Positions 21,952 to 58,033 of a DNA stretch of 64,000 nt are shown here, in pieces. The position numbers and the translations under genes were made by a program. The number at the start of each line of letters is the position of its first letter. Position 1 is the stretch's first letter. The notes beneath the pieces were generated by a model. That model ran no database searches, was not told where the DNA came from, and saw only the letters and a list, made by a program, of their open reading frames with translations. This DNA is from Promethearchaeota archaeon (GTDB lineage: Archaea > Asgardarchaeota > Lokiarchaeia > Sigyniarchaeales > SOKP01): positions 17,441-81,440 of the forward strand of contig JAEOTA010000085.1 in NCBI GenBank assembly GCA_016840085.1. Reading direction: 5' to 3'.

Positions 21952-22203
21952 TTGATATTTATGGAATTTAAAGAATTTTTTAGCGATTTTGCGGTTTTCC
22001 TAAAGACAGGTCTTAAAAAATTAATACTTGTTAGTATCCTCGTTTTCTATTTTTCATTTTTGGGTTTTTATAATGCTTTTAGGATGAATTTAGATTATTC
22101 AGTAGAATTTAGTTGGATATATGGTATAATCTCTAGCCTAATATTCACTATAATTTTCGTTTTACTTGTAGAGATATTCCTCTTTTATCTCAAGAAACGA
22201 TAG
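21952..22203 (+). CDS. Small two-TM membrane protein (probable start ATG 21961), paralog of 29001..29258
   Basis: MEFKEFFSDF...ILVFYFSFLGFYNAFRMNLDYSVEFSW aligns along its whole length with the 29001 ORF. The first 18 nt from the ATG are identical. Confidence 0.55.
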   Translation: MIFMEFKEFFSDFAVFLKTGLKKLILVSILVFYFSFLGFYNAFRMNLDYSVEFSWIYGIISSLIFTIIFVLLVEIFLFYLKKR

Positions 22204-29000: not shown

Positions 29001-29258
29001 ATGGAATTTAAAGAATTTCTAACCAAATTTATTAGCTATAATAAAAGAATTATAAGAAAGTTAATAGTAATCACTTTTATTGTCTTTTATTTTGCTTTTT
29101 TAATTTTGTACAATCTTTTAAGAATAAATTTACAATATTCCATAGAATCAAGTTGGTCATTAGGATTAATTTATGCGCTAATATCCGCTCTTATTCTAGT
29201 CTTGATTGTAGATTTATTGCGTTTCATCTACATAATTAAATCGGGAAAAGAATTATAA
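29001..29258 (+). CDS. Small two-TM membrane protein, paralog of 21961..22203
   Basis: MEFKEFLTKF...FIVFYFAFLILYNLLRINLQYSIESSW. Same orientation as its paralog. Confidence 0.55.
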   Translation: MEFKEFLTKFISYNKRIIRKLIVITFIVFYFAFLILYNLLRINLQYSIESSWSLGLIYALISALILVLIVDLLRFIYIIKSGKEL

Positions 29259-34019: not shown

Positions 34020-35444
34020 CTAAAAGTTTAATCCCTTAAAGTAATTTACTGTTGTATAAATATCTTTACCACCTTTTCTAAGATAATCCATAGCTTCTTC
34101 GATACCTTCAATTGTTAAGTCAAACATAGGAATTATGCTAGAGATGATCTTTCTAGTCCATGGTGACCATTCAGGTCTTATAAGTTCAGGATTTAACCAT
34201 ACGATTCCATTTTTAAAATGATCCCCGAGCTCCTTGATATAATAGATTCCTGGTAATTCATTTCTATGATAATAATATATCGAACCATATTTTTCAGTTA
34301 ATTCCCAAGACGCCATTGCAGCGTCGCCCACTATGACAACTCTATATTTATTATCATATTTTCTTAGAAAATCGTTGAATTCAATAGCTTCATCAGGATT
34401 GCGTTTTGCATTGAAATAAATTGTTTCATAGATGCAATTATGGAAATAATAATGTTTAAAATCTTTCCAATGAGACATATTATTTGCTGCTGAGAAAAGT
34501 AAATTAACGAGATGGGCATAAGGAGTCATACTACCTCCAACGTCCATTAAAAGGAGGAGTTTTACATCATTTTTTCTACGTTTATCAAATACTATTTCAA
34601 TATCTCCACAGTTTTTAGCAGTTTTATCAATAGTTTCATCTAAATTTAACTCGTCTCTTTTTCCAATTTCTTCAAGCTTCTTGAGTTTTTTCAGAGCAAC
34701 TTTGATTTGTCGTGTATCTAAAACGATATCTTTGCGATAATCTTTAAAAATTCTTTTTTCTGCTATTTGAACTGCTGTCCGCATACCTGAAGAACCACCA
34801 ATTCTCATTCCCATAGGATTTTCTCCAGAATGCCCAAAAGGAGATGTGCCCTGCGTGCCAATCCAATGATCTCCAAAATTATGTTCTTCATCTTGTCTTT
34901 GCATTAAATCTTCGAATTGTTTTTGCATTTCTTCGAGATTAAAAAATTGGTTTAACATTTCTTGGGATATCCCATCAATTTCAGCAATACCAAGGTTTTT
35001 CTGCAACCATTTCAATATTTCCTCCTTAATATCCTCTGGTGCGTTTATTAAAAGCTTACCTTCAAGTTTATCTCTGTATTTCTCTAACAGTTCTTGAAGT
35101 AATTCTTGTATATCTACAACGTTGAGGTATTGTTGATATTCTCTTAATAATAATTGCAATCCTTCAATTAATTCTGGGAAAGTAATATCTTTCTCTAACC
35201 AATCCCAAATCTCGTGTTTAAGATCATCAGGGAATCTTATCATAGCATTTTTAAAGAAATTAGCAAAAGAAATGTCATAGATGTCAAAATGATGTTCATT
35301 TTTGCATAAAATAGATCTTGAAGTATAATAAAACTCGACCATGTTATGGATAAGCCCTTTATTTAACGCCTCTAATAGGGTAATATACTCTGTTATTGAT
35401 ACAGGAAGTCTTTCTTTAAGGTAATAAAAAAATTCGATAAACAT
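34020..35444 (-). CDS. vWA-domain protein (CoxE-like partner of a MoxR ATPase)
   Basis: 474 aa. MIDAS-like LLLLMDVGGSMTPY. A MoxR gene lies upstream on the same strand, separated by an insertion. Confidence 0.7.
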   Translation of the reverse strand: MFIEFFYYLKERLPVSITEYITLLEALNKGLIHNMVEFYYTSRSILCKNEHHFDIYDISFANFFKNAMIRFPDDLKHEIWDWLEKDITFPELIEGLQLLLREYQQYLNVVDIQELLQELLEKYRDKLEGKLLINAPEDIKEEILKWLQKNLGIAEIDGISQEMLNQFFNLEEMQKQFEDLMQRQDEEHNFGDHWIGTQGTSPFGHSGENPMGMRIGGSSGMRTAVQIAEKRIFKDYRKDIVLDTRQIKVALKKLKKLEEIGKRDELNLDETIDKTAKNCGDIEIVFDKRRKNDVKLLLLMDVGGSMTPYAHLVNLLFSAANNMSHWKDFKHYYFHNCIYETIYFNAKRNPDEAIEFNDFLRKYDNKYRVVIVGDAAMASWELTEKYGSIYYYHRNELPGIYYIKELGDHFKNGIVWLNPELIRPEWSPWTRKIISSIIPMFDLTIEGIEEAMDYLRKGGKDIYTTVNYFKGLNF

Positions 35445-35672
35445 TTAATTAAATCTTAATATCTTCAATGGTCGTTATTTAAATAGAGTTAACCATATAA
35501 TATTAGTTTTTGGTCAATATCAATACTTCTTTAATCTTCTTATAAAATAATTTGGTCTTATAGTAATAAACTAAGTATAAGAAAAAATTATTTATAAACT
35601 TGAAAACCCAAAAACTCATTGATATTATCTGGATATTTATTATTTTGAATTATTATTAATGGACGCATCGCT

Positions 35673-36770
35673 ATGAGAAAGATTTCATATCAAAATTGTA
35701 AAGAATTGGCAAAGCTAAGAGGGCTTGAATTAGTAATTTCTGAAAAAGAGTTTAATAAACTAATAAATAGAAAAAAATCAGCTCTAAGCAAAATTAAAAT
35801 TAAATGGAAATGTGACAAGGGACATCAATGGACTGCAACATATAACAATATAAAACAACATGAATCTGGTTGTCCTTATTGTTATGGTAATGTTGCAATA
35901 TCCTATCAGGTCTGTAAGGATTTAGGAAAACTAAAGGGATTTGAGTTAATAACCTCTGTAAATGAATTTAATATATTAATGAAAAATAGAACCAATGTTC
36001 CTAGTAAAGTTAAATTAAGATGGAGTTGTTTTTTAGGACATAAATGGAATGCAGCATATAACAATATAAAGCATACAGATACGGGATGTCCTTATTGTTA
36101 TGGTAATCTACCATTATCATATCAAAATTGCATAGAATTAGCAAAACTGAGAGGATTTGAAATATTAATATCTGAAAAGGAGTTTATAGGTTTAATGAAA
36201 CAGAGAACTACAGTTCCAAGTAAAGTAAAATTAAGATGGAAATGCGAAAAGTGTCATGAATGGTGTGCGATATATAATGATATACAACAAGGTAAGGGAT
36301 GCCCAGAATGTGCTGAAGGTAAATATGAGGAAAGCTGTCGTTGGTATTTTGAAAAAATTTTCAAAGAAAAATTTAATAAAATCAAACTATCCAAATTAAT
36401 ACCTTATTATAATGGTCAGATGCATTTAGATGGATTTGCTTTAGTAATGATTGCTGAAAATCAAATTAAGTTAGCTTTTGAATTTAATGGTATACAACAT
36501 GATGAATTCCCTAATTTCTTTCATAAAACATATCAAGACTTTTTAGAACAACAACGATATGATAATGAAAAGAAAGAATTATGTGAAAATAATGGAATAA
36601 TTCTTATTGTTTTTCCCCAGAAAATTGATTTAAAAATGAATCATCCTGAAATAATTCAAAAATTCATTATAGACGAATTAGAAAGAAAAACTGGTTTTAG
36701 ATTATCAAACATTCAACAATATAATCATCTGGTTGAATGGGCTAGTTGGAGAAGTTTAGATAATTTTTAG
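35673..36770 (+). CDS. Triple zinc-ribbon repeat protein with a C-terminal PD-(D/E)XK-like (Vsr/DUF559-like) nuclease domain
   Basis: Three ~72-aa repeats (...LAKLRGFEL...KLRWKCxxGHxWxAxYNNIKxxxxGCPYCYGN). C-terminus HLDGFALV...KLAFEFNGIQH...YDNEKKELCENNGIILIV. Confidence 0.6.
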   Translation: MRKISYQNCKELAKLRGLELVISEKEFNKLINRKKSALSKIKIKWKCDKGHQWTATYNNIKQHESGCPYCYGNVAISYQVCKDLGKLKGFELITSVNEFNILMKNRTNVPSKVKLRWSCFLGHKWNAAYNNIKHTDTGCPYCYGNLPLSYQNCIELAKLRGFEILISEKEFIGLMKQRTTVPSKVKLRWKCEKCHEWCAIYNDIQQGKGCPECAEGKYEESCRWYFEKIFKEKFNKIKLSKLIPYYNGQMHLDGFALVMIAENQIKLAFEFNGIQHDEFPNFFHKTYQDFLEQQRYDNEKKELCENNGIILIVFPQKIDLKMNHPEIIQKFIIDELERKTGFRLSNIQQYNHLVEWASWRSLDNF

Positions 36771-36781
36771 TAAATTTATTC

Positions 36782-36847
36782 TATCACATATTCTGTAATA
36801 CTAACCAGTAATCTTTCTTTTAAGTAATAATAAAATTCGATAAACAT
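36782..36847 (-). pseudogene. Remnant copy of the vWA gene 5' end, 15 nt downstream of the MoxR stop
   Basis: Reverse translation gives MFIEFYYYLKERLLVSITEYVIE*. The intact gene has MFIEFFYYLKERLPVSITEYITLL (35379..35444). Confidence 0.7.
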
Positions 36848-36862
36848 TCTTAAAAATCAAAA

Positions 36863-37714
36863 TTAGGTAGGGAATTTTATTTTATCAACAACTATTTCAA
36901 AATCTTTCTCTTTCTTTATCAAAACGCCAAGAAATGGAATTCCTTTCTTTAATTCATCTATTGTAATCCCGCTTTTTAGCAAAACTCCAATCCAATCAAG
37001 AAGTTCCGAAGTTGATGGCATTTTTCTTAATTTAGTAATCGCTCTTAAGGCATAAAAATGTTTTAAACATTGTTCTAATAAGTTCTGCTTTAGATTCGGA
37101 TAGTGTAATCTGCAAATTTCTGCCATGAAGCTTTTAGAGGGAAATTCAATCCAGTGGAATACACATCTTCTTAAAAATGCATCTGGGAGTTCTTTTTCAT
37201 TGTTAGATGTAATAATTACAATTGGTCTGTTTTTAGCTTTCACAAATTCTTTTGTTTCTTTTATATAAAATTCCATAACATCCAATTCCTGTAAAAGATC
37301 ATTAGGAAATTCAATATCAGCCTTATCAATTTCATCAATTAATAAAACTACCTGTTCATCAGAAACAAAAGATTCGCCTAATGGGCCCAGCATTATATAA
37401 TCGTGAATATTATCTACATCTCGATCATCACAGCCAAATCTACTATCATTTAATCTTTGAACTGTGTCATACATATAGCACCCATCAATACCCTCACTCG
37501 TGCTTTTAATATTCCAGATAATTAATTTTTTACCTAAACTTTCAGCTATTGCATGCGCGAGCATTGTTTTCCCTGTTCCTGGCTCTCCTTTAACTAATAA
37601 GGGTCTTGCTAATGCTATTGATACGTTAACTATGTTCCTTAGTTGAGGATCAGCAAGATATTTAACCCTATCAGTTTTTACGTCTCCTTGGAATTTATTA
37701 AATGTAGCATCCAT
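36863..37714 (-). CDS. MoxR/CoxD-like AAA+ ATPase (AAA_5)
   Basis: Walker A LVKGEPGTGKTMLAHAIA, Walker B VVLLIDEIDKAD. Confidence 0.85.
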   Translation of the reverse strand: MDATFNKFQGDVKTDRVKYLADPQLRNIVNVSIALARPLLVKGEPGTGKTMLAHAIAESLGKKLIIWNIKSTSEGIDGCYMYDTVQRLNDSRFGCDDRDVDNIHDYIMLGPLGESFVSDEQVVLLIDEIDKADIEFPNDLLQELDVMEFYIKETKEFVKAKNRPIVIITSNNEKELPDAFLRRCVFHWIEFPSKSFMAEICRLHYPNLKQNLLEQCLKHFYALRAITKLRKMPSTSELLDWIGVLLKSGITIDELKKGIPFLGVLIKKEKDFEIVVDKIKFPT

Positions 37715-38341: not shown

Positions 38342-39517
38342 TTAGTCTCTTTGACTTAACACTGTAACAGAACAAACACTAAACGCACCACCAAGATTGT
38401 GGGCTAATCCCGTTTTAGCGTCCGGAACTTGTCTTCCTTCTGCTCGTCCTTGAAGCTGTCTAGTAATCTCTTGGAGCATTCTACAACCAGTTGATCCTAT
38501 AGGATGTCCAAATGATTTTAAACCACCTGATGGATTTACTGCTGTTTCCCCATCCCAATTAAACGTACCATTCTTTAATTCTTCGGCAGCCATTCCACGA
38601 TCACAGAATTGTAAATCCTGACAATTTAATAATTCTGTAATGGTAAAACAATCATGAACCTCAGCAGCATCAATTTCTTTTCGTGGATCAGTTATATCTG
38701 CTTCTTTATACGCCATCTCAGCTGCTTTAACAGTGGCAGGGGCATGAGTAAAATCAAAATTAGGCCAATACCATGGAATGCTTGTATACACGGCAATTGA
38801 GTTTGCTTTTACAACTACATAATCGTCTGCATGAGCATAACTTTCTGCAAGTTCTGGGCTTGTTAAAATAAGTGCTGCTGCACCATCACTCATTGCACAA
38901 CAATCATAGCGACCAAGGGGATCTGCAATCATTGGAGCATTCAATGCTTGTTCAATTGAAATTTTCATTCTGAAATGAGCTTTTGGATGATAATATCCAT
39001 TATCATGATTCTTAACAGCAACTCGCGCTAAATCTTCTTTTGTCCATCCATATTCCTGAAAACTACGGGTAGCAAGTAAACAAAACATTGCAGGAGCTGA
39101 TGGGCGGGGATATACAGGATGACCAAAATATTTTGCGCTAGGAAGTCCTCTACCACCTTCATCCATTAGTTTTTCTACACCACAGGCCATAACAACATCA
39201 TACGCACCGGAAGCAACACCAAAACAAGCATTGCGGAAGGCATCCATACCTGAAGCACAATAATTCTCACATCTAGTAATTGGTTTTCCACCTAATCTTA
39301 ATGTATCTTCTAAAGTGGCGCCAGAAACACCTGTGAAGAAATAATAAACACCTAACCATGCTGCATCAATTTCATCTTTACTTACCCCTGCATCTTTGAA
39401 AGCACCATGGCATGCCTCACTTAAAAGGTCATACTGATTTTTATCCCAGAGTTCCCCATATTTCGTCGCGTCACATCCTATTATCGCAACCTGATCTTTT
39501 ATTCCATGTTTAACCAT
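38342..39517 (-). CDS. Archaeal-type acetyl-CoA acetyltransferase (thiolase), paralog 2
   Basis: YCASGMDAFRNA (active-site Cys), GHPIGSTGCRM, NLGGA. Start taken at ATG 39517 (the track starts at TTG 39526). About 80% aa identity to the neighbouring paralog. Confidence 0.85.
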   Translation of the reverse strand: MVKHGIKDQVAIIGCDATKYGELWDKNQYDLLSEACHGAFKDAGVSKDEIDAAWLGVYYFFTGVSGATLEDTLRLGGKPITRCENYCASGMDAFRNACFGVASGAYDVVMACGVEKLMDEGGRGLPSAKYFGHPVYPRPSAPAMFCLLATRSFQEYGWTKEDLARVAVKNHDNGYYHPKAHFRMKISIEQALNAPMIADPLGRYDCCAMSDGAAALILTSPELAESYAHADDYVVVKANSIAVYTSIPWYWPNFDFTHAPATVKAAEMAYKEADITDPRKEIDAAEVHDCFTITELLNCQDLQFCDRGMAAEELKNGTFNWDGETAVNPSGGLKSFGHPIGSTGCRMLQEITRQLQGRAEGRQVPDAKTGLAHNLGGAFSVCSVTVLSQRD

Positions 39518-39672
39518 AATACACAATCCAATAGTAATTTCTACTAAAATAATTAAGTTTTCTATTAAAAATTAATTGATTATATTAGTAAGAGTTTTTT
39601 AAATTTCCTAATATTTACACACAGTCTTAAAAAAAAGAAAAAGAAAAAAATAAGGATTTTTGTTATAAAATC

Positions 39673-40860
39673 TTAATCTCTTTGACCTAAAATAGTTACA
39701 GAGCACACACTATATGCTCCACCGAGATTGTGGCATAAACCTAATTTAGCGTCTGGAACTTGTCTTCCTTCTGCACGTCCTTGAAGTTGTTTAGTAATTT
39801 CTGTTAACATTCGACAACCTGTAGATCCTATTGGATGACCAAATGATTTCAGACCACCTGATGGATTTGTTGCTGTTTCACTATCCCAATTGAAGGTTCC
39901 ATTCTTTAATTCCTCGGCAGCCATTCCACGATCACAGAATTTCAAATCCTGACAATTAATTAATTCTGTAATTGTAAAACAGTCATGAATCTCAGCACAA
40001 TCAATTTCTTTTCGTGGATCAGTTATATCTGCTTCTTTATACGCCATCTCAGCTGCTTTAACAGTAGCAGGAAAGCTTGTAAAGTCAGCTCCAGGCCCAT
40101 TAGAAGGCACATACCATGGGGTATTAGTTCTGCATGAAAGAGCATTTGCTTTTACTAATATATAATCATCAGCATGAGCATAACTCTCTGCAAGTTCTGG
40201 TGTAGTCAATATTAGAGCTGCAGCGCCATCTGACATGGCACAGCAATCAAATCGTCCAAGAGGATCAGCAATCATAGGTGCATTCATTGCTTGTTCAATT
40301 GATATTTTTCTTCTAAAGTGAGCTTTTGGATGATAAGAACCGTTATCATGATTTTTCACTGCAACTCGAGCCAGATCTTCTTTTGTCCACCCAAATTCAT
40401 GAAAACTGCGGGTAGCAGCCATAGAGAACATTGCAGGAGCGGATGGGAGAGGTAATACAGGATGTCCGAAAATTTTGAATCCTGGAAGTCCACTTGACCC
40501 TTCATCCATTAGTTTTTCTACACCACAGGCCATAACAACATCATACACACCCGAAGCAATAGCAAAACAAGCATTTCGAAAGGCATCCATTCCTGAAGCA
40601 CAATAATTTTCTGTTCTCGTAATTGGTATTCCATCTAATCTTAACATATCCTCAATTGTAGCACCAGACATTCCTGTGAAATAATAATATATCCCCGCCC
40701 ATGCTGCTTCAATCTCATCTTTTTTAATGCCAGCATCTTTGTAAGCATCTCGAGCTGCTTCAAAAAGTAAATCATACTGACTTTTATCCCAGAGTTCTCC
40801 ATATTTTGTCATATCACAACCAATTATAGCAACTCTATCTCTTATCCCTTTAGTTACCAT
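39673..40860 (-). CDS. Archaeal-type acetyl-CoA acetyltransferase (thiolase), paralog 1
   Basis: Same motifs as paralog 2. GGAGGT Shine-Dalgarno 7-8 nt upstream. 16 nt downstream of the HMGCS-DUF35 gene. Confidence 0.85.
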   Translation of the reverse strand: MVTKGIRDRVAIIGCDMTKYGELWDKSQYDLLFEAARDAYKDAGIKKDEIEAAWAGIYYYFTGMSGATIEDMLRLDGIPITRTENYCASGMDAFRNACFAIASGVYDVVMACGVEKLMDEGSSGLPGFKIFGHPVLPLPSAPAMFSMAATRSFHEFGWTKEDLARVAVKNHDNGSYHPKAHFRRKISIEQAMNAPMIADPLGRFDCCAMSDGAAALILTTPELAESYAHADDYILVKANALSCRTNTPWYVPSNGPGADFTSFPATVKAAEMAYKEADITDPRKEIDCAEIHDCFTITELINCQDLKFCDRGMAAEELKNGTFNWDSETATNPSGGLKSFGHPIGSTGCRMLTEITKQLQGRAEGRQVPDAKLGLCHNLGGAYSVCSVTILGQRD

Positions 40861-40876
40861 TTTTTATCTACCTCCT

Positions 40877-42316
40877 TTACGGTCTCCCTCTTTCAGGGCG
40901 ACATTTCCAATAATAATTTAAAAATTCAGCTCCTTCATGTTCTTTTCTAAACGTCAATTCAACTCTCATACCTATATGAACTTTTTCCTCAGGTTTGTCT
41001 ATTTCTGTCATATTTAATAGAACTCTTCCACCACCATCTAAATCAATCACACATCGAGGTACAGGTGTGGCAAAATAATTACCACCCACGAGATGATCTA
41101 AGGTAAATGTAAAGATGGTTCCTTTTAACTCGAGTTTTACCGGTTCTAACTGATCATCTGCTCTACACACATAACAAGAACGTAAAAAGTCTGGATATTG
41201 AATTGTTCCGCAATTTTTACATTTAACTCCATACCACTTATATACTGATGCTGCATCACGCCATAGCGTTACAGCAGAGCTTTTTCTTTTATATCTATCT
41301 TTTTCAAGAACCTCCTTAAAATCAATAAATTTACTGTAATCTTTTAAGGTTGCCATAGATTTTTGATGTCCGACGACACCCATTCGAGTTTTTCCAAGAT
41401 CTCTTAGAGCATTTCTGTCTCGAACTTGCATTAAAATTGCGTCTGCTCCATCTCCAAATCCTGCCATAATTATCTTTGCATCAGGTTTAGGTCTTCTTAA
41501 AGCGGAAATTAAAAGTATAAATGGCATTGGAGTTCCTAAATCACCAACTTGAAAAAATACACTGTTTTGAGCAACCCCTTGTGAAAATTTCATCATCTTA
41601 GCTACTCTACCGTGCATTCTAGGATTATTATAATAATAAGCAGCAGCACCAATATCCTCAGGTTTTAAATTATTTCTTTTTAAAATTTCTGACATTGTTT
41701 TAGTTATATTCTCAAGATAAAACCTAGCATCCATCTTTGCTTCAAATGTCCTTATAAATTTATCTTTATCAGCTCTTTTCCATGGTCCAGTAACATTAGC
41801 AGCAACTGAATAATAATCATCAATTGATAAAGCTAGATTATCATCTTCTGATATAAGTAAAGCAGCTGCCCCATCAGCAAATCCATATTCCCACATCGTT
41901 GATGGTTCTGGCACACGTGTATCTGCAGCAATTACAAGAATGTTTCTAATATCTTTATTTGCTTTAATAGTATCAACAGCTCGAGCAACTGCACTTGTTC
42001 CTGCTTTCAAAGAATCTGTAAAATCAGCAGTAATTATATCCTCTCTCATATCTAATATAGTGGCGAGTAAGGATGCTGAATCCTTTTCTGTATAGACTTG
42101 AGTTGTTGATGCAAAATATAATCCATCAATTGTTTTTGGATCAATTCCCATTAGGCAATCTAAACCGGCTTCAACTGACATAGTAATACTATCTTCATCT
42201 GCCATCGCAACAGCTTTAGTACCAGGAACGACAGGGAAATCCCATGCTTTCCCGATTAACTCTCTTGGTAATAGATATTTTGGCAAATAAGCTCCATATG
42301 ATTTAATTCCAATCAA
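40877..42316 (-). CDS. HMG-CoA synthase fused to a C-terminal DUF35 (zinc ribbon plus OB fold) domain
   Basis: Start re-set to TTG 42316 (GGAG 10 nt upstream), giving (M)IGIKSYGAYLPKY, typical of HMGCS. The C-terminus has CKNCGTIQYP...CYVCRADD followed by an OB-like segment. Confidence 0.8.
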   Translation of the reverse strand: MIGIKSYGAYLPKYLLPRELIGKAWDFPVVPGTKAVAMADEDSITMSVEAGLDCLMGIDPKTIDGLYFASTTQVYTEKDSASLLATILDMREDIITADFTDSLKAGTSAVARAVDTIKANKDIRNILVIAADTRVPEPSTMWEYGFADGAAALLISEDDNLALSIDDYYSVAANVTGPWKRADKDKFIRTFEAKMDARFYLENITKTMSEILKRNNLKPEDIGAAAYYYNNPRMHGRVAKMMKFSQGVAQNSVFFQVGDLGTPMPFILLISALRRPKPDAKIIMAGFGDGADAILMQVRDRNALRDLGKTRMGVVGHQKSMATLKDYSKFIDFKEVLEKDRYKRKSSAVTLWRDAASVYKWYGVKCKNCGTIQYPDFLRSCYVCRADDQLEPVKLELKGTIFTFTLDHLVGGNYFATPVPRCVIDLDGGGRVLLNMTEIDKPEEKVHIGMRVELTFRKEHEGAEFLNYYWKCRPERGRP

Positions 42317-42479
42317 TTTTAATTTTCTCCTTTTTTTGATTTTAGTATTTTGTTTTAAATTTATTATATATATGAATTTGAATGTAATAAGATAAAAATA
42401 TTTCTGCAAATTAGAATGAAAAAGTAACACAAAAAAAATATTTTTTGCAGAGTTGTATCCTTTATTGCTTTTATTTTTT

Positions 42480-42501
42480 TAAGGATTTAATTTAATCCTT
42501 A
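42480..42501. promoter_or_regulatory. Inverted repeat TAAGGAT N8 ATCCTTA in the divergent HMGCS/lyase intergenic region
   Basis: 7-bp perfect arms. Position fits an operator or a leader hairpin. Confidence 0.25.
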
Positions 42502-42566
42502 CAAGTAAATACTTAAATCTATCAATTCTACGAATTTATAAGAGACTCCTTTATAATGGGAATAAT

Positions 42567-42653
42567 ATGGGAGGATATCTACGAAATCTTTTTCAAATCA
42601 TTATTCTTAATTCACCTATAATTAGAATTTATATAAACAGATGGTTTAAATGA
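42567..42653 (+). CDS. Candidate 28-codon upstream ORF overlapping the lyase start (ATGA)
   Basis: MGGYLRNLFQIIILNSPIIRIYINRWFK*. TGA 42651-42653 overlaps ATG 42650-42652. No Shine-Dalgarno seen, so this is speculative. Confidence 0.25.
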   Translation: MGGYLRNLFQIIILNSPIIRIYINRWFK

Positions 42654-44047
42654 ATGGACCCCCCGAACCTTTTAAAATTAAGATGATTGAACATGTTGGA
42701 ATGCCAGATCAAATAAGAAGAAGTGAAGCAATTAGAGAAGCTGGTTATAATACATTTCTATTAAGATCCGAGGATGTTTACATTGATCTCCTAACCGATT
42801 CTGGTACATCCGCCATGTCAGATTATCAATGGAGTGGTCTTCTTTTAGGTGATGAAGCCTATGCTGGAGCCCGAAATTTTTATAATCTCGAAAAAGCAAT
42901 ACAGGATGTACTTGGTTATAAATATATCGTTCCAACTCACCAGGGTCGTGGTGCTGAGCATCTTATGTATAGTTACCTCGTAAAATCAGGTCAGCTTGTT
43001 CCAAGAAATATGTATTTTACTACTTCAAAACTCCATGTTGAGCTTCCTGGTGGAAAAATGGTTGATGTCATCATTGATGAGGCACATGATCCAGAAAATT
43101 TACATCTATTTAAGGGTAATATAGATTTCAAAAAATTACAAGCATTTATTGATGAATATGGAGTAGAAAAAATCGCTTTTGTGAATGTTGAAATGGACGT
43201 GAATATGGCAGGAGGGCAACCTGTATCTATGCAAAATCTTCGTGATTTACGAGAATTTTGCAACGATTATAATTTGAAAATAATATATGATGCTACAAGA
43301 TCGAGTGAAAATGCATATTTTATTCGAGAACGTGAAAGAGGTTATGAAAATACACCAATTATAGATATTTTGAGAGAAATGATGAGTTATTCTGATGGAT
43401 GTATTTATAGTTCAAAAAAGGACTGTCTAGTAAATATTGGTGGTTTTCTTGCCACAAGTGATAAGGATATTTTTGAACATTGCCGTAATATGGTTGTTGT
43501 TTATGAGGGATTGCATACTTATGGAGGTATGGCGGGTCGAGATATGGAAGCTGTAGCAAGAGGATTAAAAGAAAGCACATCATATGAATATTTAAAGTAT
43601 AGGATAAATCAAGTTCGCTATCTGGGCGATTTATTGATGAAAGCAGGAGTTCCTATCGTAAAACCTACAGGTGGGCACGGTGTATTTATAAATGCATTAA
43701 AATTTTTACCCCATCTTGAAAGAAAACAATGGCCCGCCCAAACCCTTGCTGCAGCCATTTATGAAGACTCGGGCGTCAGAAGTATGGAACGAGGTGCAGT
43801 ATCAAAAGGACGAGATAAAGAAACAGGGGAAAACATCTTTCCAGCATTAGAGCTCGTGAGACTCACAATTCCTCGAAGAGTTTACACAAACACACATATG
43901 GAGTATACAGCGGAGTCAGTAATTCGCCTATATGAAAAGCGAGACTCTATCAGAGGTTTAAAGATGGTATATGAACCAGAATATCTCCGTTTTTTTCAAT
44001 CTCGTTTTGAAGTCCTAGAGTCATCAAAGTCATACTTAGAGACATAA
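42650..44047 (+). CDS. Beta-eliminating lyase family: tryptophanase / tyrosine phenol-lyase
   Basis: 465 aa. PLP-lysine motif YSSKKDCLVNIGGFL, DLLTDSGT, C-terminal LRFFQSRFE. The last ~12 residues (VLESSKSYLET) lie beyond the duplicated segment. Confidence 0.85.
   Translation: MNGPPEPFKIKMIEHVGMPDQIRRSEAIREAGYNTFLLRSEDVYIDLLTDSGTSAMSDYQWSGLLLGDEAYAGARNFYNLEKAIQDVLGYKYIVPTHQGRGAEHLMYSYLVKSGQLVPRNMYFTTSKLHVELPGGKMVDVIIDEAHDPENLHLFKGNIDFKKLQAFIDEYGVEKIAFVNVEMDVNMAGGQPVSMQNLRDLREFCNDYNLKIIYDATRSSENAYFIRERERGYENTPIIDILREMMSYSDGCIYSSKKDCLVNIGGFLATSDKDIFEHCRNMVVVYEGLHTYGGMAGRDMEAVARGLKESTSYEYLKYRINQVRYLGDLLMKAGVPIVKPTGGHGVFINALKFLPHLERKQWPAQTLAAAIYEDSGVRSMERGAVSKGRDKETGENIFPALELVRLTIPRRVYTNTHMEYTAESVIRLYEKRDSIRGLKMVYEPEYLRFFQSRFEVLESSKSYLET
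43845..44011 (+). repeat. Direct repeat copy 1 (3' end of lyase gene)
   Basis: 167 bp aligning without gaps to 45617..45783, by eye about 85% identity, offset 1772 bp. Confidence 0.85.
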
Positions 44048-44383
44048 CAATTGCGACTATCAAACACAAATTTAGTAATTTTCTATATTTTTTCATACAT
44101 TTACTCACTTTTGATTTCTTTAATTTTCGATTATTTTCAAAATGTTTATGATTAAAAAAAAAAAAATCACCTCTAATATTTAACATTTTTCTTAAGAGGG
44201 AAAATTAGATGCAGGAAATTAAGAAAATAAGCAAGAAAATGACTAAGATTTTATAATTTTAAGCTCTTTTAATTTATTGTTTATTGGAAATTTGTCGGGG
44301 TCCTGACTATTAATTTTCCGTGCAATTATCAGTGTAGTGAGAAGTCAAAAAGATACAGGGATATACAACGTGGCTTTGGAATT

Positions 44384-45289
44384 GTGTTAGAGGGTATTGG
44401 AGAGAGACATAGTAATTATAACCAAATCTTATATAATGAATTATATTATGGGGATGTGGGGATTTATTTAGATAATTCAAATTATAATACCATTAAATAT
44501 AATACTTTTTTTAAAAATCGAGTATTTATACAAGAAGAAAATAATTGTATAGGAAATATTATTGAAGACAATTATTACGTAAAAAGAGCTTATTTTAATT
44601 GGTCTATTATAATTATAGCAGTAATAGTCTTAATAATCATATCTGTGTGTATTTTTTTATATTATAAATTAAAGAAGAAGAAAGCCTCTATGAAATCAGA
44701 AACTGAAGATGAAATAGCGGAGTCAGTCACTATCCAAAGTGAAACATTGATTTCTGAAGAAGAGCAGACTCCAAAGATATTTCCACATGAAATTGAACAA
44801 AAAGAGTCTCAAACTTCTATGGTTGAATCCATCTCTGTTGAAGATGATGTACCACCCCTTATAGAGCAACTTCCTGAAATCAGTCCTGTAGATAAATTTA
44901 ACATTTTTTTAAGCTATTCTACTTTAGATTCGCAGTATTTCCAAATAGAAAAGATTGTGGAGCTTCTGGAGCAATATCCCGAAATTGGTAAGATATATTA
45001 TTGGGAAGCGGACAGTAAAGAAAATATCGTTGAATTTATGAATGAGACCTTAAAAAAAATTAATGTATTTATTCTCCTCTGCAGTGAGAATTCACTCAAA
45101 TCTAAAGCTGTGAATGACGAATGGCAAGCAGCGTTTCAGATGCGAAAAGAAGGATTATTAAAAATTATCCCTGTATATGAACAACAAGACCATATACCAA
45201 ATATCTTATGGCATTTACTTAATGTAAAGTATACCAAAGACGACTTTAAAGGCTTTCTTGAGAACTTGCATCGTGAAATTTTGAGATAA
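44384..45289 (+). CDS. Membrane-anchored TIR-domain protein with a short N-terminal beta-helix (PbH1-like) remnant
   Basis: N-terminus GIYLDNSNYNTIKYNTFFKN, TM helix WSIIIIAVIVLIIISVCIFLYY, acidic linker. TIR: FNIFLSYSTLDS...VFILLCSENSLKSKAVNDEWQAAF...IIPVY, with the conserved Glu. Confidence 0.7.
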   Translation: MLEGIGERHSNYNQILYNELYYGDVGIYLDNSNYNTIKYNTFFKNRVFIQEENNCIGNIIEDNYYVKRAYFNWSIIIIAVIVLIIISVCIFLYYKLKKKKASMKSETEDEIAESVTIQSETLISEEEQTPKIFPHEIEQKESQTSMVESISVEDDVPPLIEQLPEISPVDKFNIFLSYSTLDSQYFQIEKIVELLEQYPEIGKIYYWEADSKENIVEFMNETLKKINVFILLCSENSLKSKAVNDEWQAAFQMRKEGLLKIIPVYEQQDHIPNILWHLLNVKYTKDDFKGFLENLHREILR

Positions 45290-45330
45290 TAGAGAGAAAT
45301 ATAAATAACAGATTCAACATACTCTTTCTA

Positions 45331-45340
45331 TTTTTTTTTT
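45331..45340 (+). terminator. Oligo-T tract (T10) downstream of the TIR gene
   Basis: T10 lies 42 nt after the TIR stop. Archaeal RNA polymerase terminates at oligo-T. Confidence 0.4.
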
Positions 45341-45471
45341 AAATATGTACCTATTACTTTAGAGTAATAGAAAGAGCAGTAGTGAGAGCGAAGACAAATA
45401 GACGAAAATGTGTCTTACCTTATGATATTTGAAATATATGAAAAAAAGAAAATAAAGACATAAGAATAATT

Positions 45472-45792
45472 ATGGGAGTAATTGATAATTATCTTAAATC
45501 AAAAGAAAAGAAGAAATACTATTGCTTAAGCTGTTTCCTGTATACCAAGAAAAGATATGTTCTCCATGTTCTTGAAGATGAGACAGGAAAGGTATATAAA
45601 TGTCCAAATTGTCCACCATTAGAGCTCGTTAGACTCACAATTCCTCGAAGGGTCTATACTAACACACATTTGGAATATACGGCGGAATCAGTGATTCGCC
45701 TATATGAAAAACGGGACACTATTAGAGGGTTAAAAATGGTATATGAGCCCCAATATCTACGGTTTTTTCAGGCGCGATTTGAAAAATTATAA
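45472..45792 (+). CDS. Chimeric ORF: novel zinc-ribbon N-terminus fused in frame to the duplicated lyase C-terminus
   Basis: MGVIDNYLKSKEKKKYYCLSCFLYTKKRYVLHVLEDETGKVYKCPNCPP plus LELVRLTIPRRVYTNTHLEYTAESVIRLYEKRDTIRGLKMVYEPQYLRFFQARFEKL*. Confidence 0.5.
   Translation: MGVIDNYLKSKEKKKYYCLSCFLYTKKRYVLHVLEDETGKVYKCPNCPPLELVRLTIPRRVYTNTHLEYTAESVIRLYEKRDTIRGLKMVYEPQYLRFFQARFEKL
45617..45783 (+). repeat. Direct repeat copy 2 (lyase 3' end)
   Basis: See copy 1. It ends in FQARFEKL*, which resembles a canonical lyase C-terminus. Confidence 0.85.
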
Positions 45793-45961
45793 AAAAGATA
45801 ATTTTTAGAATAAATATCAGCCAAAAATAAAAAAGTTAGGGAAAGAGAATGGATGTTCCTGTTTTTTTCTTAGCAATCCATTGCCGCATTTCCTCATAAC
45901 ATTCCACGCAGTACTATGCGCCATCGCGTAGGTTGTACGTCATGTCTTGGTCTGATCTTGC

Positions 45962-46663
45962 TTATTCTCTAACCTTTTCTATGGATAAAATAACTCTTTT
46001 TAATTCCCAATTAGGATCTCTCTTACCAGGAAATTCCAAAATCTCCTTACATTGTAAACCCAAATTTTCTAAAAGTCCATTCCATTCTTGTACTGTTAAA
46101 ACTTTTGAACTTTTTTCACCTTTATATTTCCTTCTGATTATTTTTTGAAAAATAAATCCGATAATTTTTCCTATTTTTGTGCGCCATTTATCTGGGGCAC
46201 ATATATCTGCTATTACTAATCTTCCATTATTTTTTATGACTCTTTTAAACTCATTTAATGCTTTTTCAACCTTCATATGACGGATAGCAAAAGAGCTTAT
46301 TATCAAATCAAATGAACTATCACTAAAAGGAATATTTTCTCCATTTCCCTTTTCTGTAATAATAAAGTTTTCAAAACCTTGCTCTTTTATATTTTTTTTA
46401 GCAATCGCAATCATTTCATCCACGGGTTCAAGAGCAATTATCTTAAAGTTATTAGATATCTTTTTTGCAAGAGCTAAAGAAGTGAGTCCTGTTCCTGCTC
46501 CTACATCTAATATTCTAATATCGGGTTTTAATTCACATAATTTTATAAAAGATTTCATAAAATCTTCATAATTAATACCTGATCTCTCAAACATCCTTAA
46601 CTTATCATCCTCATAAGAAAGAGCCCATTTTTTATATTGTTCTTCAATTTTTTTTTCTTTCAT
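45962..46663 (-). CDS. Class I SAM-dependent methyltransferase
   Basis: Motif I ILDVGAGTGLTSLAL and post-I/II regions (FDLIISSFAIRHM, NGRLVIAD). Confidence 0.8.
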   Translation of the reverse strand: MKEKKIEEQYKKWALSYEDDKLRMFERSGINYEDFMKSFIKLCELKPDIRILDVGAGTGLTSLALAKKISNNFKIIALEPVDEMIAIAKKNIKEQGFENFIITEKGNGENIPFSDSSFDLIISSFAIRHMKVEKALNEFKRVIKNNGRLVIADICAPDKWRTKIGKIIGFIFQKIIRRKYKGEKSSKVLTVQEWNGLLENLGLQCKEILEFPGKRDPNWELKRVILSIEKVRE

Positions 46664-46673
46664 TTTTTCATCT

Positions 46674-46889
46674 CTAATTTGGTTTTTCTACAATGAAATG
46701 TCCAAGCGCGTTTTTATACTTATAATTTAATTTAACAAAACCTGATTTTCTCAACAGATTTATACATTTTTTCTTAGATAAAAATTTCCATGATAAGAGA
46801 GGGCATGGAATAATCGTTCCAACAGTTCGCAATGGTTCTATTGATAGAAATTTACCTCTTGGACGAAGCACTCTAAAAACTTCTGACAA
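46674..46889 (-). pseudogene. C-terminal remnant of a second SAM methyltransferase (no SAM-binding N-terminus)
   Basis: SEVFRVLRPRGKFLSIEP is the typical Methyltransf_11 post-motif. An in-frame stop lies 2 codons upstream of the TTG. Confidence 0.5.
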
Positions 46890-47019
46890 GTATTTTTATA
46901 CCTCCTAACTTTAAGAAAAATAAAATAATTAGTATTCCCAAAATAACATCTATACTAATAATAAGATGAAAGTATCCAAATCCATAATATCCATAAAATG
47001 GTTTTTCTGATTTATTCAT
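46873..47019 (-). CDS. Small hydrophobic protein (48 aa), not in ORF track
   Basis: MNKSEKPFYGYYGFGYFHLIISIDVILGILIILFFLKLGGIKILVRSF*. GAGGT lies 2 nt upstream of the ATG. Immediately downstream of PadR. Confidence 0.35.
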   Translation of the reverse strand: MNKSEKPFYGYYGFGYFHLIISIDVILGILIILFFLKLGGIKILVRSF

Positions 47020-47030
47020 AACCTCATGCC

Positions 47031-47594
47031 TTATAAAAAATCTTCAATGACTTTTCGATTTTCCACTTCTTCCTTAAGCTCTTGAAGCCATTTCAATTCT
47101 GCTTCCCAATGAGCATAGTGATGTTTAATAATATAAATTGCAAAAAAGGGGATTTTTCTCTTTAATGTATCTATAAGACCTTTATGTTCCTTATTTTTTT
47201 TTTGAATATACTGAATTCGTTTATCAATGGCTTCAATAATTTCACTCTTAGATAAAATGGGCATGAATAATAACCCTACATCAAGAGGATATCGTATTGG
47301 CTGGATTTCGAAAAAATTTTTTCGAATCATTACAATTAATTCTGTTTTTCCCTTCTCTGTTATATGATATAATGTTCTTTCTGGACGTTCACTATCTTTT
47401 TCCTTTCTACTACTTAATAAACCTTCTTTTTCCATTTTTTCTAAATTGTAGTAGAGAGATCCATAAGAGATTTCCGTAAATTCGCCAATAGCCCATTGAT
47501 TTATCACTTTTTTAATCTCATATCCATGAATGGGTTTAGGAAATTCAAATAAAATCCCTAATAAAATCAATTTTGTAAGATTTTGAATTGCCAT
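47031..47594 (-). CDS. PadR-family transcriptional regulator
   Basis: Winged helix PIHGYEIKKVI...SYGSLYYNLEKMEKEGLL plus a C-terminal helical domain. Confidence 0.85.
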   Translation of the reverse strand: MAIQNLTKLILLGILFEFPKPIHGYEIKKVINQWAIGEFTEISYGSLYYNLEKMEKEGLLSSRKEKDSERPERTLYHITEKGKTELIVMIRKNFFEIQPIRYPLDVGLLFMPILSKSEIIEAIDKRIQYIQKKNKEHKGLIDTLKRKIPFFAIYIIKHHYAHWEAELKWLQELKEEVENRKVIEDFL

Positions 47595-47607
47595 TATTTT
47601 ATTTTAG

Positions 47608-47621
47608 ATAGAATATTCTAT
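47608..47621. promoter_or_regulatory. Perfect 14-bp palindrome ATAGAATATTCTAT, candidate PadR operator
   Basis: Lies 14 nt upstream of the PadR start codon. Confidence 0.35.
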
Positions 47622-47795
47622 ATAGACTATATCTTTTATTTAATTTAAAAATTTCTTTAAATTGCTTTTGACCTTTTAATAGAGTTAAATATGAATTCCT
47701 CTAAAGAGTTGCAAGATTTGAACCGTTACCATTATGAATTAAAAAAAGTGGATTTCGATCTTACTTTTCATACAGGATTATTAAATGATTAAAAG

Positions 47796-48272
47796 TTAAA
47801 ACCTTTTTTCAAGCACGATAATGATTGGTTGAAATCCTGCTTTAGCAAAAACATCAAGTAATTTTTTATCTGTTTTATACGCAAGATTTATTCGAAGGGA
47901 GTCGCACCCCCATGACTCTAAAATTTGAGTAGCTTTATCCGCTAAGAGTTTTCCCACACCCTTACCAATAAATTCTTTTTTAGTGGCCCAATTATCAAGA
48001 TATCCGATATATCGCCCAAGAGTATTCTTCACAGCTTCAATCATTCCCATACTTACCACTTGACCGGTAGATTTTAATTCTGCGATTAAGGTTATTCTTT
48101 TTAAATTGGGTTTAAATTGCCGAAGCCCACTAGACTCTCTCCATTGTTTTTCATCAAAACCAATATCAAATAATTCATTAAGTTCTTTTAAAATTGCTAA
48201 AGTCGCCTGATAATCTGAAGTACGATAATTTCTAATTACAATATCTTCTTGTTTAATTTCTTCCTCTAACAT
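47796..48272 (-). CDS. GNAT-family N-acetyltransferase
   Basis: Motif A KKEFIGKGVGKLLADKATQILESWG. Confidence 0.8.
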   Translation of the reverse strand: MLEEEIKQEDIVIRNYRTSDYQATLAILKELNELFDIGFDEKQWRESSGLRQFKPNLKRITLIAELKSTGQVVSMGMIEAVKNTLGRYIGYLDNWATKKEFIGKGVGKLLADKATQILESWGCDSLRINLAYKTDKKLLDVFAKAGFQPIIIVLEKRF

Positions 48273-56351: not shown

Positions 56352-56594
56352 ATGAAGCCTCCTATATATTGCATATGTGATGAAAAATTAAAAGATATGA
56401 ATGACGGTGGTTTGATAGATTTTAAGAAACGGCTTTCTGATATTGAATGGGAAAAACATATGGAAAAAATTAAAGGTGTTGGACATCCTCCATATGCGGA
56501 ATGGTTCTGTAAAAAACATTATGATAAAGCAAGTGAATTAAAACACTTACCTATTGACAAAGCTTTAAAAATTTTAATGTCTGAAGGAACTTAA
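56352..56594 (+). CDS. Small Cys/His-containing hypothetical protein
   Basis: 80 aa. YCIC...WFCKKHY motif similar to the 2910..3140 ORF. The last 7 codons lie inside the mvhD-remnant repeat. Confidence 0.4.
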   Translation: MKPPIYCICDEKLKDMNDGGLIDFKKRLSDIEWEKHMEKIKGVGHPPYAEWFCKKHYDKASELKHLPIDKALKILMSEGT

Positions 56595-56669
56595 TTCTTT
56601 AATTTGGTTAGTAAACTCTGTAATTATCTCAGCAAATCTCTTCCCTTCAGATCCGCTAATTCATTCTAA
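56574..56669 (-). pseudogene. Remnant copy of the mvhD 3' end with an in-frame TGA
   Basis: Reverse translation gives [30 protein letters not shown]. Intact mvhD has [31 protein letters not shown]. 95-bp direct repeat with 57588..57682, offset 1013 bp. Confidence 0.75.
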
Positions 56670-56730
56670 TTATATTTACTTAATTAATATAAATTTAGTA
56701 ATATCCAGTATCTCCATCACTATTATAATT

Positions 56731-57256
56731 TTAAATCCTTAGCTTTTTCCAATAAAATGGTATAGTACTTTTTTTCCATCCATAAACCCATCTCAATCAT
56801 TTTATCAAGTAATTCATGGAATTCTTTATAATTTTTCAAGATTCTTTTTTCAAGAGCTTCTAAGAGAATTTCAGTGCTCCATTTCGTATTGATACTTTTT
56901 GATTCAGCAATTAACCTGGCTCTCTTATCGTTTACAAGTAATAAGTCAGCATTTAGCTCTAAACATAGAGCTATGGCATATGCCTCTCCGCGCCCTAATT
57001 ATTTTGTAAGATTTAAAGCAATTTCATGAGATTTATCTGATTCCGGGTCTTTAACGATAAGCCATCCTTCTTCTTTAGCATTTAATTCATATTTTATATC
57101 TTGTGGGATTTCCTCATCTAGTTTAGAAAATGGATGTATTAATTCTTCCCAAACAGCATTATGAATGAATACTGTCGAATATAATTCTTTTAATAGAAAT
57201 AATTTCTCAATTTTAGCAAAAAATATTAAAGGAGAGGTATCAGAAATAACTATCAT
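56731..57256 (-). pseudogene. DUF3368-type PIN-domain toxin interrupted by an in-frame TAA (56999-57001)
   Basis: MIVISDTSPLIFFAKIEKLFLLKELY...HEIALNLTK*LGRGEAYAIALCLELNADLLLVNDKRARLIAESKSINTKWSTEILLEA..., all in one frame. Confidence 0.7.
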
Positions 57257-57562: not shown

Positions 57563-58033
57563 TTAACTGTTATCTTCTATACTCTTATAATGTCTGAAGG
57601 GACCTAATTCTTTAATTTGGTTAGTAAATTCTGTGATTACTTCAGCAAATCTCTTTCCTTCAGATGCACTGACCCATTCTAAACGCACCCTTTTTGGATC
57701 TACTCCTAATTGTTTAATCAGAATATTATGTAATCTCTCGAATCGTTCCTGTGTATATTCATTTCCAGTAATATAATGACAATCTCCAATATGACATCCA
57801 CTTACTAGAACTCCATCAGCGCCATTTTTTAAAGCTTTTAGGACAAATGATGGATCTACTCTTCCAGAGCACATTACCCTAATGATTCGAATATTCGGAG
57901 GGTATTGAAACCGTGAGACTCCTGCTAAATCTGCTCCTGCATAACTGCACCAGTTACAACAAAAAACTAAAATATGAGGTTCGAATTCTTCTTTTTTTAC
58001 TTTTTTTCTTGATCGTGACATTTTCTTATTCAC
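57563..58033 (-). CDS. mvhD: Methyl-viologen-reducing hydrogenase delta subunit
   Basis: [37 protein letters not shown]. Overlaps the hdrA stop by 8 nt. Confidence 0.85.

Follow-up and report, generated by a model that had tools for sequence, protein, structure and literature searches.

A tyrosine phenol-lyase (TPL) gene in a lokiarchaeial contig has its 3′ end in duplicate: one copy completes the gene and the other lies as an orphan 1772 nt downstream, with fragments of a TIR-domain gene and a zinc-ribbon (ZnR) gene between the two. The contig belongs to a Promethearchaeota archaeon (Lokiarchaeia; assembly GCA_016840085.1, JAEOTA010000085.1), of which we analysed positions 17,441-81,440. This 64,000-nt stretch is referred to as the window, and all coordinates are window coordinates (Table 1). 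For each gene tested, the closest proteins were from metagenome-assembled Promethearchaeota/Lokiarchaeia genomes, and the window is chromosomal DNA. We interpret the arrangement, with somewhat better than even confidence, as a recombination scar at a variable hotspot between the lyase gene and a GNAT gene, in which the lyase underwent C-terminal displacement by homology-facilitated illegitimate recombination (HFIR).

A repeat search returned a direct repeat of 172 nt (43840-44011 and 45612-45783) whose copies align without gaps at 84.9% identity and a spacing of 1772 nt. Self-BLAST of the window recovered the same pair with an E-value of 1e-49. An earlier note, made from the DNA letters alone, had claimed gap-free copies of the lyase 3′ end at this offset, and this description is correct. 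Homology of copy 1 both to copy 2 and to all orthologues ends at 44011, which places the left junction (J1) at 44011/44012. At the right junction (J2, 45611/45612), lyase homology begins at 45612 or 45613, leaving at most 1 nt of microhomology. Both junctions were recovered at 100% identity in the Logan assemblies of runs SRR14699983 and SRR14699982, where contigs L090 and L091 span 43382/43875-45513 and contig L092 spans 45489-47996. Because these independent contigs carry J1 and J2, the structure is not an artefact of the contig in the metagenome-assembled genome. The left-side Logan contigs of both runs end at 45513 and the right-side contig ends at 45489, a break that falls where the ZnR fragment is rich in A and G. 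Low complexity, a second genomic ZnR copy or a structural variant in the population could each account for this break.

Which of the two copies has the native end can be read from the orthologues. The lyase open reading frame (ORF) matches the Pfam family Beta_elim_lyase over profile positions 1-287 of 288 (E-value of 2.6e-73). It aligns to the TPL structure 1c7g (456 aa) with 620 bits over residues 1-455, compared with 454 bits for tryptophanase 1ax4. Its SSKKD motif aligns with SGKKD of 1c7g (SSKKDCLVNIGG versus SGKKDCLVNIGG), and we take the KKD-containing motif to hold the lysine that binds pyridoxal phosphate. Judged by these alignments the lyase is an orthologue of TPL, and its family membership is not in doubt. 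TPLs canonically end in RFFxARF[DE]xx at about residue 456. The in-gene copy departs from this end in its tail only, with VL instead of K[LI] at residues 455-456 and then a 9-residue extension, the ORF ending in FEVLESSKSYLET. The solved TPLs of Erwinia herbicola (1c7g) and Citrobacter freundii (2ez1/1tpl) are ~60% identical to the lyase over residues 1-455 and equal in length to residue 456, but have K or D at residue 455, where the window lyase has V and its extension.

For a closer comparison we listed the best 120 homologues, all of them Asgard TPLs, and read 30-odd of their C-termini. Nearly all of the 120 are 456-462 aa long and cover 98-99% of the query, the exceptions being lengths of 447 aa (95% coverage) and 486 aa (with an N-terminal extension). 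The C-termini read follow the pattern YLRFFQ[AS]RFE[KQEH] plus 0-6 variable residues, and the tail VLESSKSYLET was absent from all of them. Copy 2, by contrast, ends FQARFEKL with its stop at 45792, which is the canonical family end. The orthologue alignment therefore agrees with the earlier note that the downstream copy carries the canonical C-terminus and that the upstream tail is non-native. Since tails of up to 6 variable residues occur naturally and the KKD motif has been preserved, we predict that the lyase is most likely still active.

The two copies appear to come from different lineages. Of their 57 shared codons, 20 differ synonymously and 5 non-synonymously, with 21 synonymous and 5 non-synonymous differences in total (Nei-Gojobori dS of 0.90, dN of 0.039, dN/dS of 0.044), and in 20,000 neutral simulations the amino-acid changes were never so few without a stop codon arising (P < 5e-5). 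As the differences are almost all synonymous, the copies diverged mostly as working lyase ends, and they are most simply explained as two lyase alleles from diverged lineages rather than as a duplication decaying in situ. Mismatches between the copies begin 4 nt from J2 and extend to 6 nt from J1, which argues against later conversion of an initially identical duplication. Relative to the orthologue consensus, copy 2 has one conserved residue changed (M415L). Copy 1 is closest to locus L001 (82.6%) and copy 2 to L007 (80.2%) and L003 (79.1%), while the copies are nearer to each other (84.9%) than to any sampled relative. Naming the resident copy by nucleotide identity fails for this reason. 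A recent joining of the copies fits these observations, since the TIR and ZnR fragments are still open and a neighbouring pseudogene remnant has barely decayed.

That remnant identifies the ancestral arrangement. L003, a ~95%-identical relative, aligns to 45619-45959, that is, to copy 2, its stop codon and then 170 nt more. Within this additional sequence lies the remnant (45836-45958 on the minus strand), which encodes DQDMTYNLRDGA, a stop, YCVECYEEMRQWIAKKKTGTSILFP and a second stop, and whose counterpart in L003 is intact. At the nucleotide level it is 89% identical to L003; 8 codons differ synonymously and 4 non-synonymously, with the stop counted among these differences. As the L003 homology runs through copy 2 into the remnant of the neighbouring gene, copy 2 evidently occupies the ancestral position. 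The displacement of the ancestral lyase 3′ end suspected in the earlier note is thus confirmed, the canonical end sitting downstream and contiguous with the L003 homology. The remnant stops short at the end of the methyltransferase gene (45962-46663), indicating a second rearrangement directly beside the scar. This methyltransferase gene appears to belong to the sequence that later replaced the variable region separating the lyase gene from the GNAT gene (47796-48272).

Comparison with L003 also revealed that the lyase gene itself is a mosaic. Identity is 92-98% over most of 39800-43400, which includes the thiolase gene, the HMG-CoA synthase gene and the 5′ part of the lyase gene, and 85% in the intergenic gap between HMG-CoA synthase and lyase (42400-42599). 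Along the lyase, identity to L003 is 94-98% over 42650-43010, ~90% to ~43490 and 72-84% (~80%) beyond. The 3′ part is as far from L003 as are lineages that are ~78% identical throughout, and the gene is by this profile recombinant. The fall from ~95% to ~80% lies at ~43400-43500, a breakpoint that may or may not belong to the insertion event. The right flank (GNAT, a 352-aa ORF and MFS) resembles L001 instead, and in the fetched 15 kb of L003 these genes have no counterpart by sequence match.

Table 1. Features at the lyase locus, in window coordinates.
Feature	Coordinates	Strand	Remarks
Tyrosine phenol-lyase (TPL) gene, 465 aa	42650-44047	+	Intact; PF01212
Copy 1 of the repeat	43840-44011	+	In-gene copy, lyase codons 397/398-454
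J1, read-through tail VLESSKSYLET and stop	44012-44047	+	Non-homologous to copy 2 and to orthologues
AT-rich spacer, ~24% GC	44048-44272		A13 at 44154-44166; TATA-like TTTATAAT at 44250
5′-truncated β-helix-transmembrane-TIR gene, 301 aa, GTG start	44384-45289	+	TIR_2, NosD
Promoter-like block	45300-45365	+	T10, then TTTAAATA; 86-87% identity to L086 4896-4961
Zinc-ribbon (ZnR) gene, first 47 codons	45472-45611	+	CxxC...CxxC; conserved lokiarchaeial gene, cut by J2
Copy 2 of the repeat	45612-45792	+	172-nt repeat plus KL and stop; putative displaced resident lyase 3′ end, in frame with the ZnR fragment
Pseudogene remnant, in-frame TAG	45836-45958	-	From the C-terminus of a convergent zinc-finger gene (128 aa) located after the lyase in L003
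Class I S-adenosylmethionine methyltransferase gene	45962-46663	-	Adjoins the remnant; in the lyase-GNAT variable region

The sequence between the copies consists of a spacer and pieces of other genes. The spacer (44048-44272) had no match in any fetched locus or phage collection, and 44012-44383 was unmatched in BLAST searches against 90+ fetched loci. A BLAST search of 44012-46700 against these loci returned only TIR-domain homology, ZnR homology and one promoter-like block of 63 nt.

The TIR ORF contains two β-helix turns at residues 4-66 (NosD, 1.6e-5), a transmembrane (TM) helix at about residues 73-94 and a TIR domain at residues 172-301. It matches the Pfam family TIR_2 (PF13676) at 2.8e-14, with 54.1 bits against a cut-off of 28. 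The AlphaFold2 model of the ORF has pLDDT >90 over residues 170-301, and Foldseek placed the modelled residues 172-301 at a probability of 1.00 with the TIR domains of MyD88, TLR2, SPARTA and AbTir (target-normalised template-modelling scores of ~0.65-0.73). A sequence search of the PDB with the TIR domain gave nothing significant. The modelled fold indicates that the TIR domain is genuine. Across 44 family members, residues E246 and W247 do not vary, and the glutamate is a candidate equivalent of the catalytic glutamate of AbTir or SARM1.

Family members of 398-477 aa (P0122, P0124, P0164 and P0169) consist of an N-terminal right-handed β-helix, a TM helix and a TIR domain. Of the β-helix ectodomain of ~200 aa in this full architecture, the window ORF keeps ~65 aa. 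It aligns to residues 155-407 of the 407-aa P0124, lacking ~150 N-terminal residues, and is without a signal sequence. Upstream, its reading frame opens only to 44273, with a stop at 44270-44272. The alignment to full-length relatives thus indicates a beheaded gene. From its GTG start, which has a TATA-like box 134 nt upstream, the fragment might nevertheless encode a TM-anchored TIR protein. Other N-terminal fusions in the TIR domain family are leucine-rich repeats, giving a Toll-like-receptor-like layout, as well as Band7, PCI and resolvase (P0153, P0171, P0172). A full-text literature search for Lokiarchaeota, TIR and leucine-rich repeat found no paper.

With TIR immune proteins (bacterial ThsB, AbTir and SPARTA, animal TLR/MyD88) the window ORF shares the TIR_2 match, the fold match and the family-invariant Glu-Trp pair, and its full-length relatives share the ectodomain-TM-TIR layout of Toll-like receptors. 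The window copy differs from these proteins in that most of the ectodomain is gone and no ThsA, Ago or NLR partner lies nearby. PADLOC matched the ORF weakly to ThsB (9.5e-5, 20 bits). A Thoeris system would place ThsB beside ThsA, SIR2 or Macro-SLOG; here the neighbours are the lyase, the ZnR fragment, the methyltransferase and PadR.

The ZnR fragment is 69-80% identical by BLASTP (63-85% in the alignment) to the N-terminus of the full-length proteins P0175-P0178, which are 75-89 aa long and end in CPNCKHM-x-I-x-W...LEKMGI. DNA alignments to seven ZnR loci end exactly at 45611 in six cases. J2 accordingly has the appearance of an illegitimate joint that is in frame by chance, and it creates a chimeric ZnR-lyase ORF of 106 aa (45472-45792). 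Upstream of the fragment, a T10 run (45331-45340) follows the TIR ORF. A block of 63-66 nt (oligo-T, then TTTAAATATGTAC.TATTACTTTAG) is common to 45300-45365 and L086, a distant lokiarchaeial contig. In L086, several small ORFs come before the ZnR gene, and this block sits immediately ahead of the first of them, ~3 kb from the ZnR gene itself. The block is possibly a conserved promoter or leader, and 45300-45611 resembles part of a normal chromosomal ZnR locus. A scan of the locus for bacterial promoters and terminators was uninformative for an archaeon.

The earlier note described the sequence between the copies as a TIR cassette, and as a discrete inserted unit this cassette did not survive the analysis. 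The TIR gene is 5′-truncated and the ZnR gene 3′-truncated, the insert has no mobility gene, tRNA or terminal inverted repeat, and the flanking copies are diverged alleles. Its inventory of the interval was right about the A13 tract, the TM-TIR ORF and the oligo-T run, but what it took for the start of a zinc-ribbon ORF is a conserved gene cut at codon 47. The search of the interior that it proposed for finding other copies yielded the TIR and ZnR homologues and the 63-nt block, but no copy of the insert.

We determined how the locus is organised in other Asgard genomes. L009 has lyase and GNAT in convergent orientation, separated by an 18-nt gap. GNAT, the 352-aa ORF and MR_MLE occur in this order in L006, L007, L009 and L017, and L001 keeps GNAT and the 352-aa ORF. 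The contents of the gap between lyase and GNAT differ among L006, L017, L007, L001, L003, L013 and the window. The gap holds PEMT and two small ORFs in L001; a 128-aa zinc-finger gene, a 263-aa ORF, TBP and a PycTM match in L003; genes for a TM protein, another type of TIR protein and a methyltransferase in L013; and the scar, the remnant of the 128-aa gene, the methyltransferase and PadR in the window. None of the relatives examined has a TIR gene at this lyase junction, which supports the displacement reading of the earlier note. A second partial lyase copy occurs only in the window and in none of ~17 other Asgard lyase loci, nor does any of these carry an independent second copy, the finding that the note had named as contrary to its reading. 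Apparent double lyase matches in bacterial loci were full-length TPL/tryptophanase paralogues rather than partial copies.

The gap downstream of the lyase may be a small defence-gene hotspot. The TIR protein of L013 (7178-8065, plus strand) has 295 aa and a TIR_2 match of 2.6e-13, and is followed by the methyltransferase gene. The PycTM match in L003 is recorded for a 49-aa ORF (14854-15003) near the contig end, ~3.5 kb downstream of the lyase. The identity of a 236-aa ORF in L003 as a Pycsar cyclase was not supported.

How might this arrangement have arisen? Ancestrally, the TPL and GNAT genes would have been convergent neighbours, with the gap between them filled by unrelated genes in each lokiarchaeial lineage. 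A non-mobile piece of chromosome from a related archaeon would then have been inserted where the lyase gene is about to end, at its very 3′ terminus. This piece would have comprised a xenologous lyase 3′ end with its odd tail, the AT-rich spacer, the 3′ two-thirds of a β-helix-TM-TIR gene, the promoter block and 47 ZnR codons. A homologous crossover within the lyase would have served as the anchor, and an illegitimate join at J2 would have linked the donor DNA to resident lyase codon 397/398, 172 nt upstream of the end of the imported homology. With donor lyase homology reaching codon 454, codons 398-454 would have become duplicated. Imported copy 1 would complete the enzyme with an altered tail, and resident copy 2 would have been pushed 1772 nt downstream, in frame with ZnR by chance. 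The geometry calls for a homology-guided step, since part of the inserted DNA is lyase sequence adjoining the homologous position in the target. Because the copies are diverged alleles, the event brought in DNA of another lineage and did not merely insert a segment and duplicate the target. Both the TIR fragment and the ZnR-lyase ORF would be by-products. Recombination between the copies could delete the insert again and restore a canonical hybrid lyase.

C-terminal displacement with orphan 3′ fragments is known from Rhs, contact-dependent inhibition (CDI) and type VI secretion system (T6SS) effector-immunity loci, where it has been ascribed to HFIR (Kirchberger et al. 2017, PMC5361080, citing Jackson 2009, de Vries & Wackernagel 2002 and Prudhomme 2002). 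Like those loci, the window has an in-gene copy and an orphan 3′ fragment with conserved coding sequence, and the dN/dS of 0.044 marks the two as alleles of different lineages. Further similarities, under this reading, are an incoming 3′ copy that acts as the anchor, a resident 3′ end shifted downstream as an orphan, the lack of an integrase and a mosaic flanking gene. The window scar differs in affecting a metabolic enzyme of an Asgard archaeon rather than a polymorphic toxin. Its new tip is an accidental tail of 11 codons instead of a functional module, its cargo consists of truncated genes, and there is a single displacement and no array. We consider it a 3′-end displacement scar, a kind already known but seen here in a host and a gene that are new for it, and not a new kind of system.

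Several points weigh against this reconstruction. J1 lies inside the coding sequence, 2 codons ahead of the stop, and 44012-44272 has no match that would point to a source. The donor locus was not found: none of the 7 ZnR loci has a neighbouring TIR gene, the closest TIR relative is 40-50% identical over the aligned length and the closest ZnR gene ~80%. A metagenome scan with the ZnR alignment for the source locus was swamped by false pattern matches. HFIR joints in bacteria usually have 3-10 nt of microhomology, against at most 1 nt here, and we know of no demonstration of HFIR in Asgard archaea. Finally, the copies are 79% and 77% identical to L003, although the outer flanks are 89-96% identical. 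As neither copy is L003-like, either could be the resident one, and the whole arrangement may instead have been imported ready-made by ordinary homologous recombination.

Alternatively, the locus could be the remnant of an integrative element that carried an attP-like lyase 3′ end and inserted through an integrase or by Campbell-type integration, producing attL and attR, after which the integrase was deleted together with most of the element. We regard this as unlikely. Elements that target gene 3′ ends do leave imperfect, target-derived repeats, rebuild the gene with an altered end and displace the native one, and the insert is indeed flanked by target-derived direct repeats (172 nt, 85%) around a lyase rebuilt with a slightly changed tail. 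The longest identical run between the copies, 20 nt at 43859-43878, is a possible core site, the TIR truncation near 44270 is compatible with an internal deletion, and a second scar of the same layout is present at mvhD (see below). Unlike such elements, however, the window insert measures only 1.6 kb, contains truncated genes and has neither integrase or excisionase nor an element terminus. Pfam domains of integrases, resolvases and transposases were absent from the insert and from the ~55 ORFs scanned in the 64 kb, and searches of the window found no tRNA and no Rfam family. Terminal inverted repeats were likewise absent, the sole inverted pair near the ends (I9) being a low-complexity A-run and T-run. 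The interior had no match among phage records, and the TIR and ZnR proteins had no relatives on viral contigs. An insertion sequence or transposon is not indicated either, as there is no transposase, and a 172-nt repeat with 15% divergence is not the short, identical target-site duplication expected of one. Moreover, the right end is a small gene of housekeeping type cut in the middle of its codons, and a circular form would put the att site inside the chimeric ZnR-lyase ORF, requiring two prior illegitimate joins.

An insertion in situ with a 172-nt target duplication, by a staggered break or template switch, could have produced the same geometry if one copy was later overwritten by the allele of a relative. 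The 3′ third of the lyase has demonstrably been subject to allelic replacement, and the repeat is unevenly diverged, with 2 mismatches in its first 39 nt and 24 in the remaining 133 nt. This low-mismatch start is marginal (estimated P of ~0.05) and falls in the most conserved peptide, ELVRLTIPRR. With mismatches as close as 6 nt to J1 and 4 nt to J2, no homology is left in which the overwriting crossovers could resolve, and two independent events would be required. We consider this scenario rather improbable.

A very improbable alternative is that the 106-aa chimera was selected as a new gene after an old duplication in situ, which would explain the low dN/dS. Its ORF is open and in frame, the ZnR start, 22 conserved nucleotides upstream of it and the TATA-like box have been kept, and copy 2 departs from the consensus at just 1-2 of its 57 codons. 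An in-frame fusion is, however, expected by chance in one of three cases, the ZnR part lacks the conserved C-terminal helix, the lyase part represents 59 residues of a 456-aa fold, and M415L alters a residue conserved in all orthologues seen. The chimeric ORF has no record as a called gene, and the 4 proteins returned from a database of 5.8 billion proteins were all canonical ZnR proteins of 75-89 aa, with no ZnR-lyase chimera among them; nor was a partial second copy present in the other Asgard loci. An assembly artefact that joined two co-occurring strains is hardly credible: the contig is metagenome-assembled and the Logan contigs overlap by only 25 nt at 45489-45513, but both junctions lie well inside those contigs, and copies that are 85% identical with no common run above 20 nt offer no repeat for a false join.

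Two further insertions of this layout, each flanked by diverged copies of a gene end, occur elsewhere in the window. The last 98 nt (57585-57682) of an mvhD/FlpD gene (57563-58033, minus strand; PF02662, 3.8e-58) recur 1013 nt downstream at 56572-56669 with 86.7% identity. This displaced copy ends ELSSFRH at a stop derived from TGG to TGA, and shows 6 synonymous and 6 non-synonymous differences. Between the mvhD copies are a 78-aa ORF with weak similarity to UPF0175 and a frameshifted ORF (56723-57256) with no Pfam match; its identity as a PIN toxin was unsupported by Pfam. MvhD representatives are at most 70% identical to the window MvhD and have variable tails, and the canonical C-terminus is not readable from such distant homologues. 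Additionally, the first 12 codons (35409-35445) of a VWA_CoxE gene (34020-35444, minus strand) recur over 37 nt at 36812-36848 with 92% identity, directly after the stop of an AAA ATPase gene (36863-37714, minus strand). These repeats flank a 1.4-kb insert with a gene for DUF4379 treble-clef zinc-finger repeats (35673-36770, plus strand), which suggests that an insertion has interrupted a gene pair of the MoxR-like AAA/VWA type. A crude survey found 3 short high-identity direct repeats in the 64 kb of the window, 1 in 231 kb of other Asgard sequence and ~7 in 615 kb of bacterial loci, counts that are too small for a claim of enrichment. The window also contains pairs of paralogues, namely tandem thiolases (38342-39526 and 39673-40860; 80% nucleotide identity), HdrA-like oxidoreductase segments (58075-59486 and 62587-63998; 74%) and membrane-protein ORFs of 83-85 aa (21952-22203 and 29001-29258; 67%).

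It is conceivable, if doubtful, that insertions which displace a gene end and retain a copy of it are a recurrent, integrase-independent route by which this Lokiarchaeon gains accessory genes; the ZnR-lyase chimera as an expressed new gene is a weaker variant of this proposal. If true, a mechanism shared by the three insertions would be distinctive of the way Asgard genomes change, with long staggered-break repair or template switching with DNA of related lineages as candidates.

The lyase locus also calls for caution in annotation, as the "TM-TIR" gene is a beheaded fragment of a receptor-like β-helix-TM-TIR family and the 106-aa zinc-ribbon ORF a chimera. Its value is that of an example rather than a discovery, being ordinary in kind and of modest interest for gene flow in Asgard archaea. 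The contrast within the lyase between 92-98% identity at the 5′ end and ~80% at the 3′ end documents recombination between species-level lineages. As we interpret it, the locus represents an assembly-verified, frozen intermediate in the gain of accessory DNA beside an Asgard core gene, in which the core enzyme was kept and its old end left behind as a datable marker.

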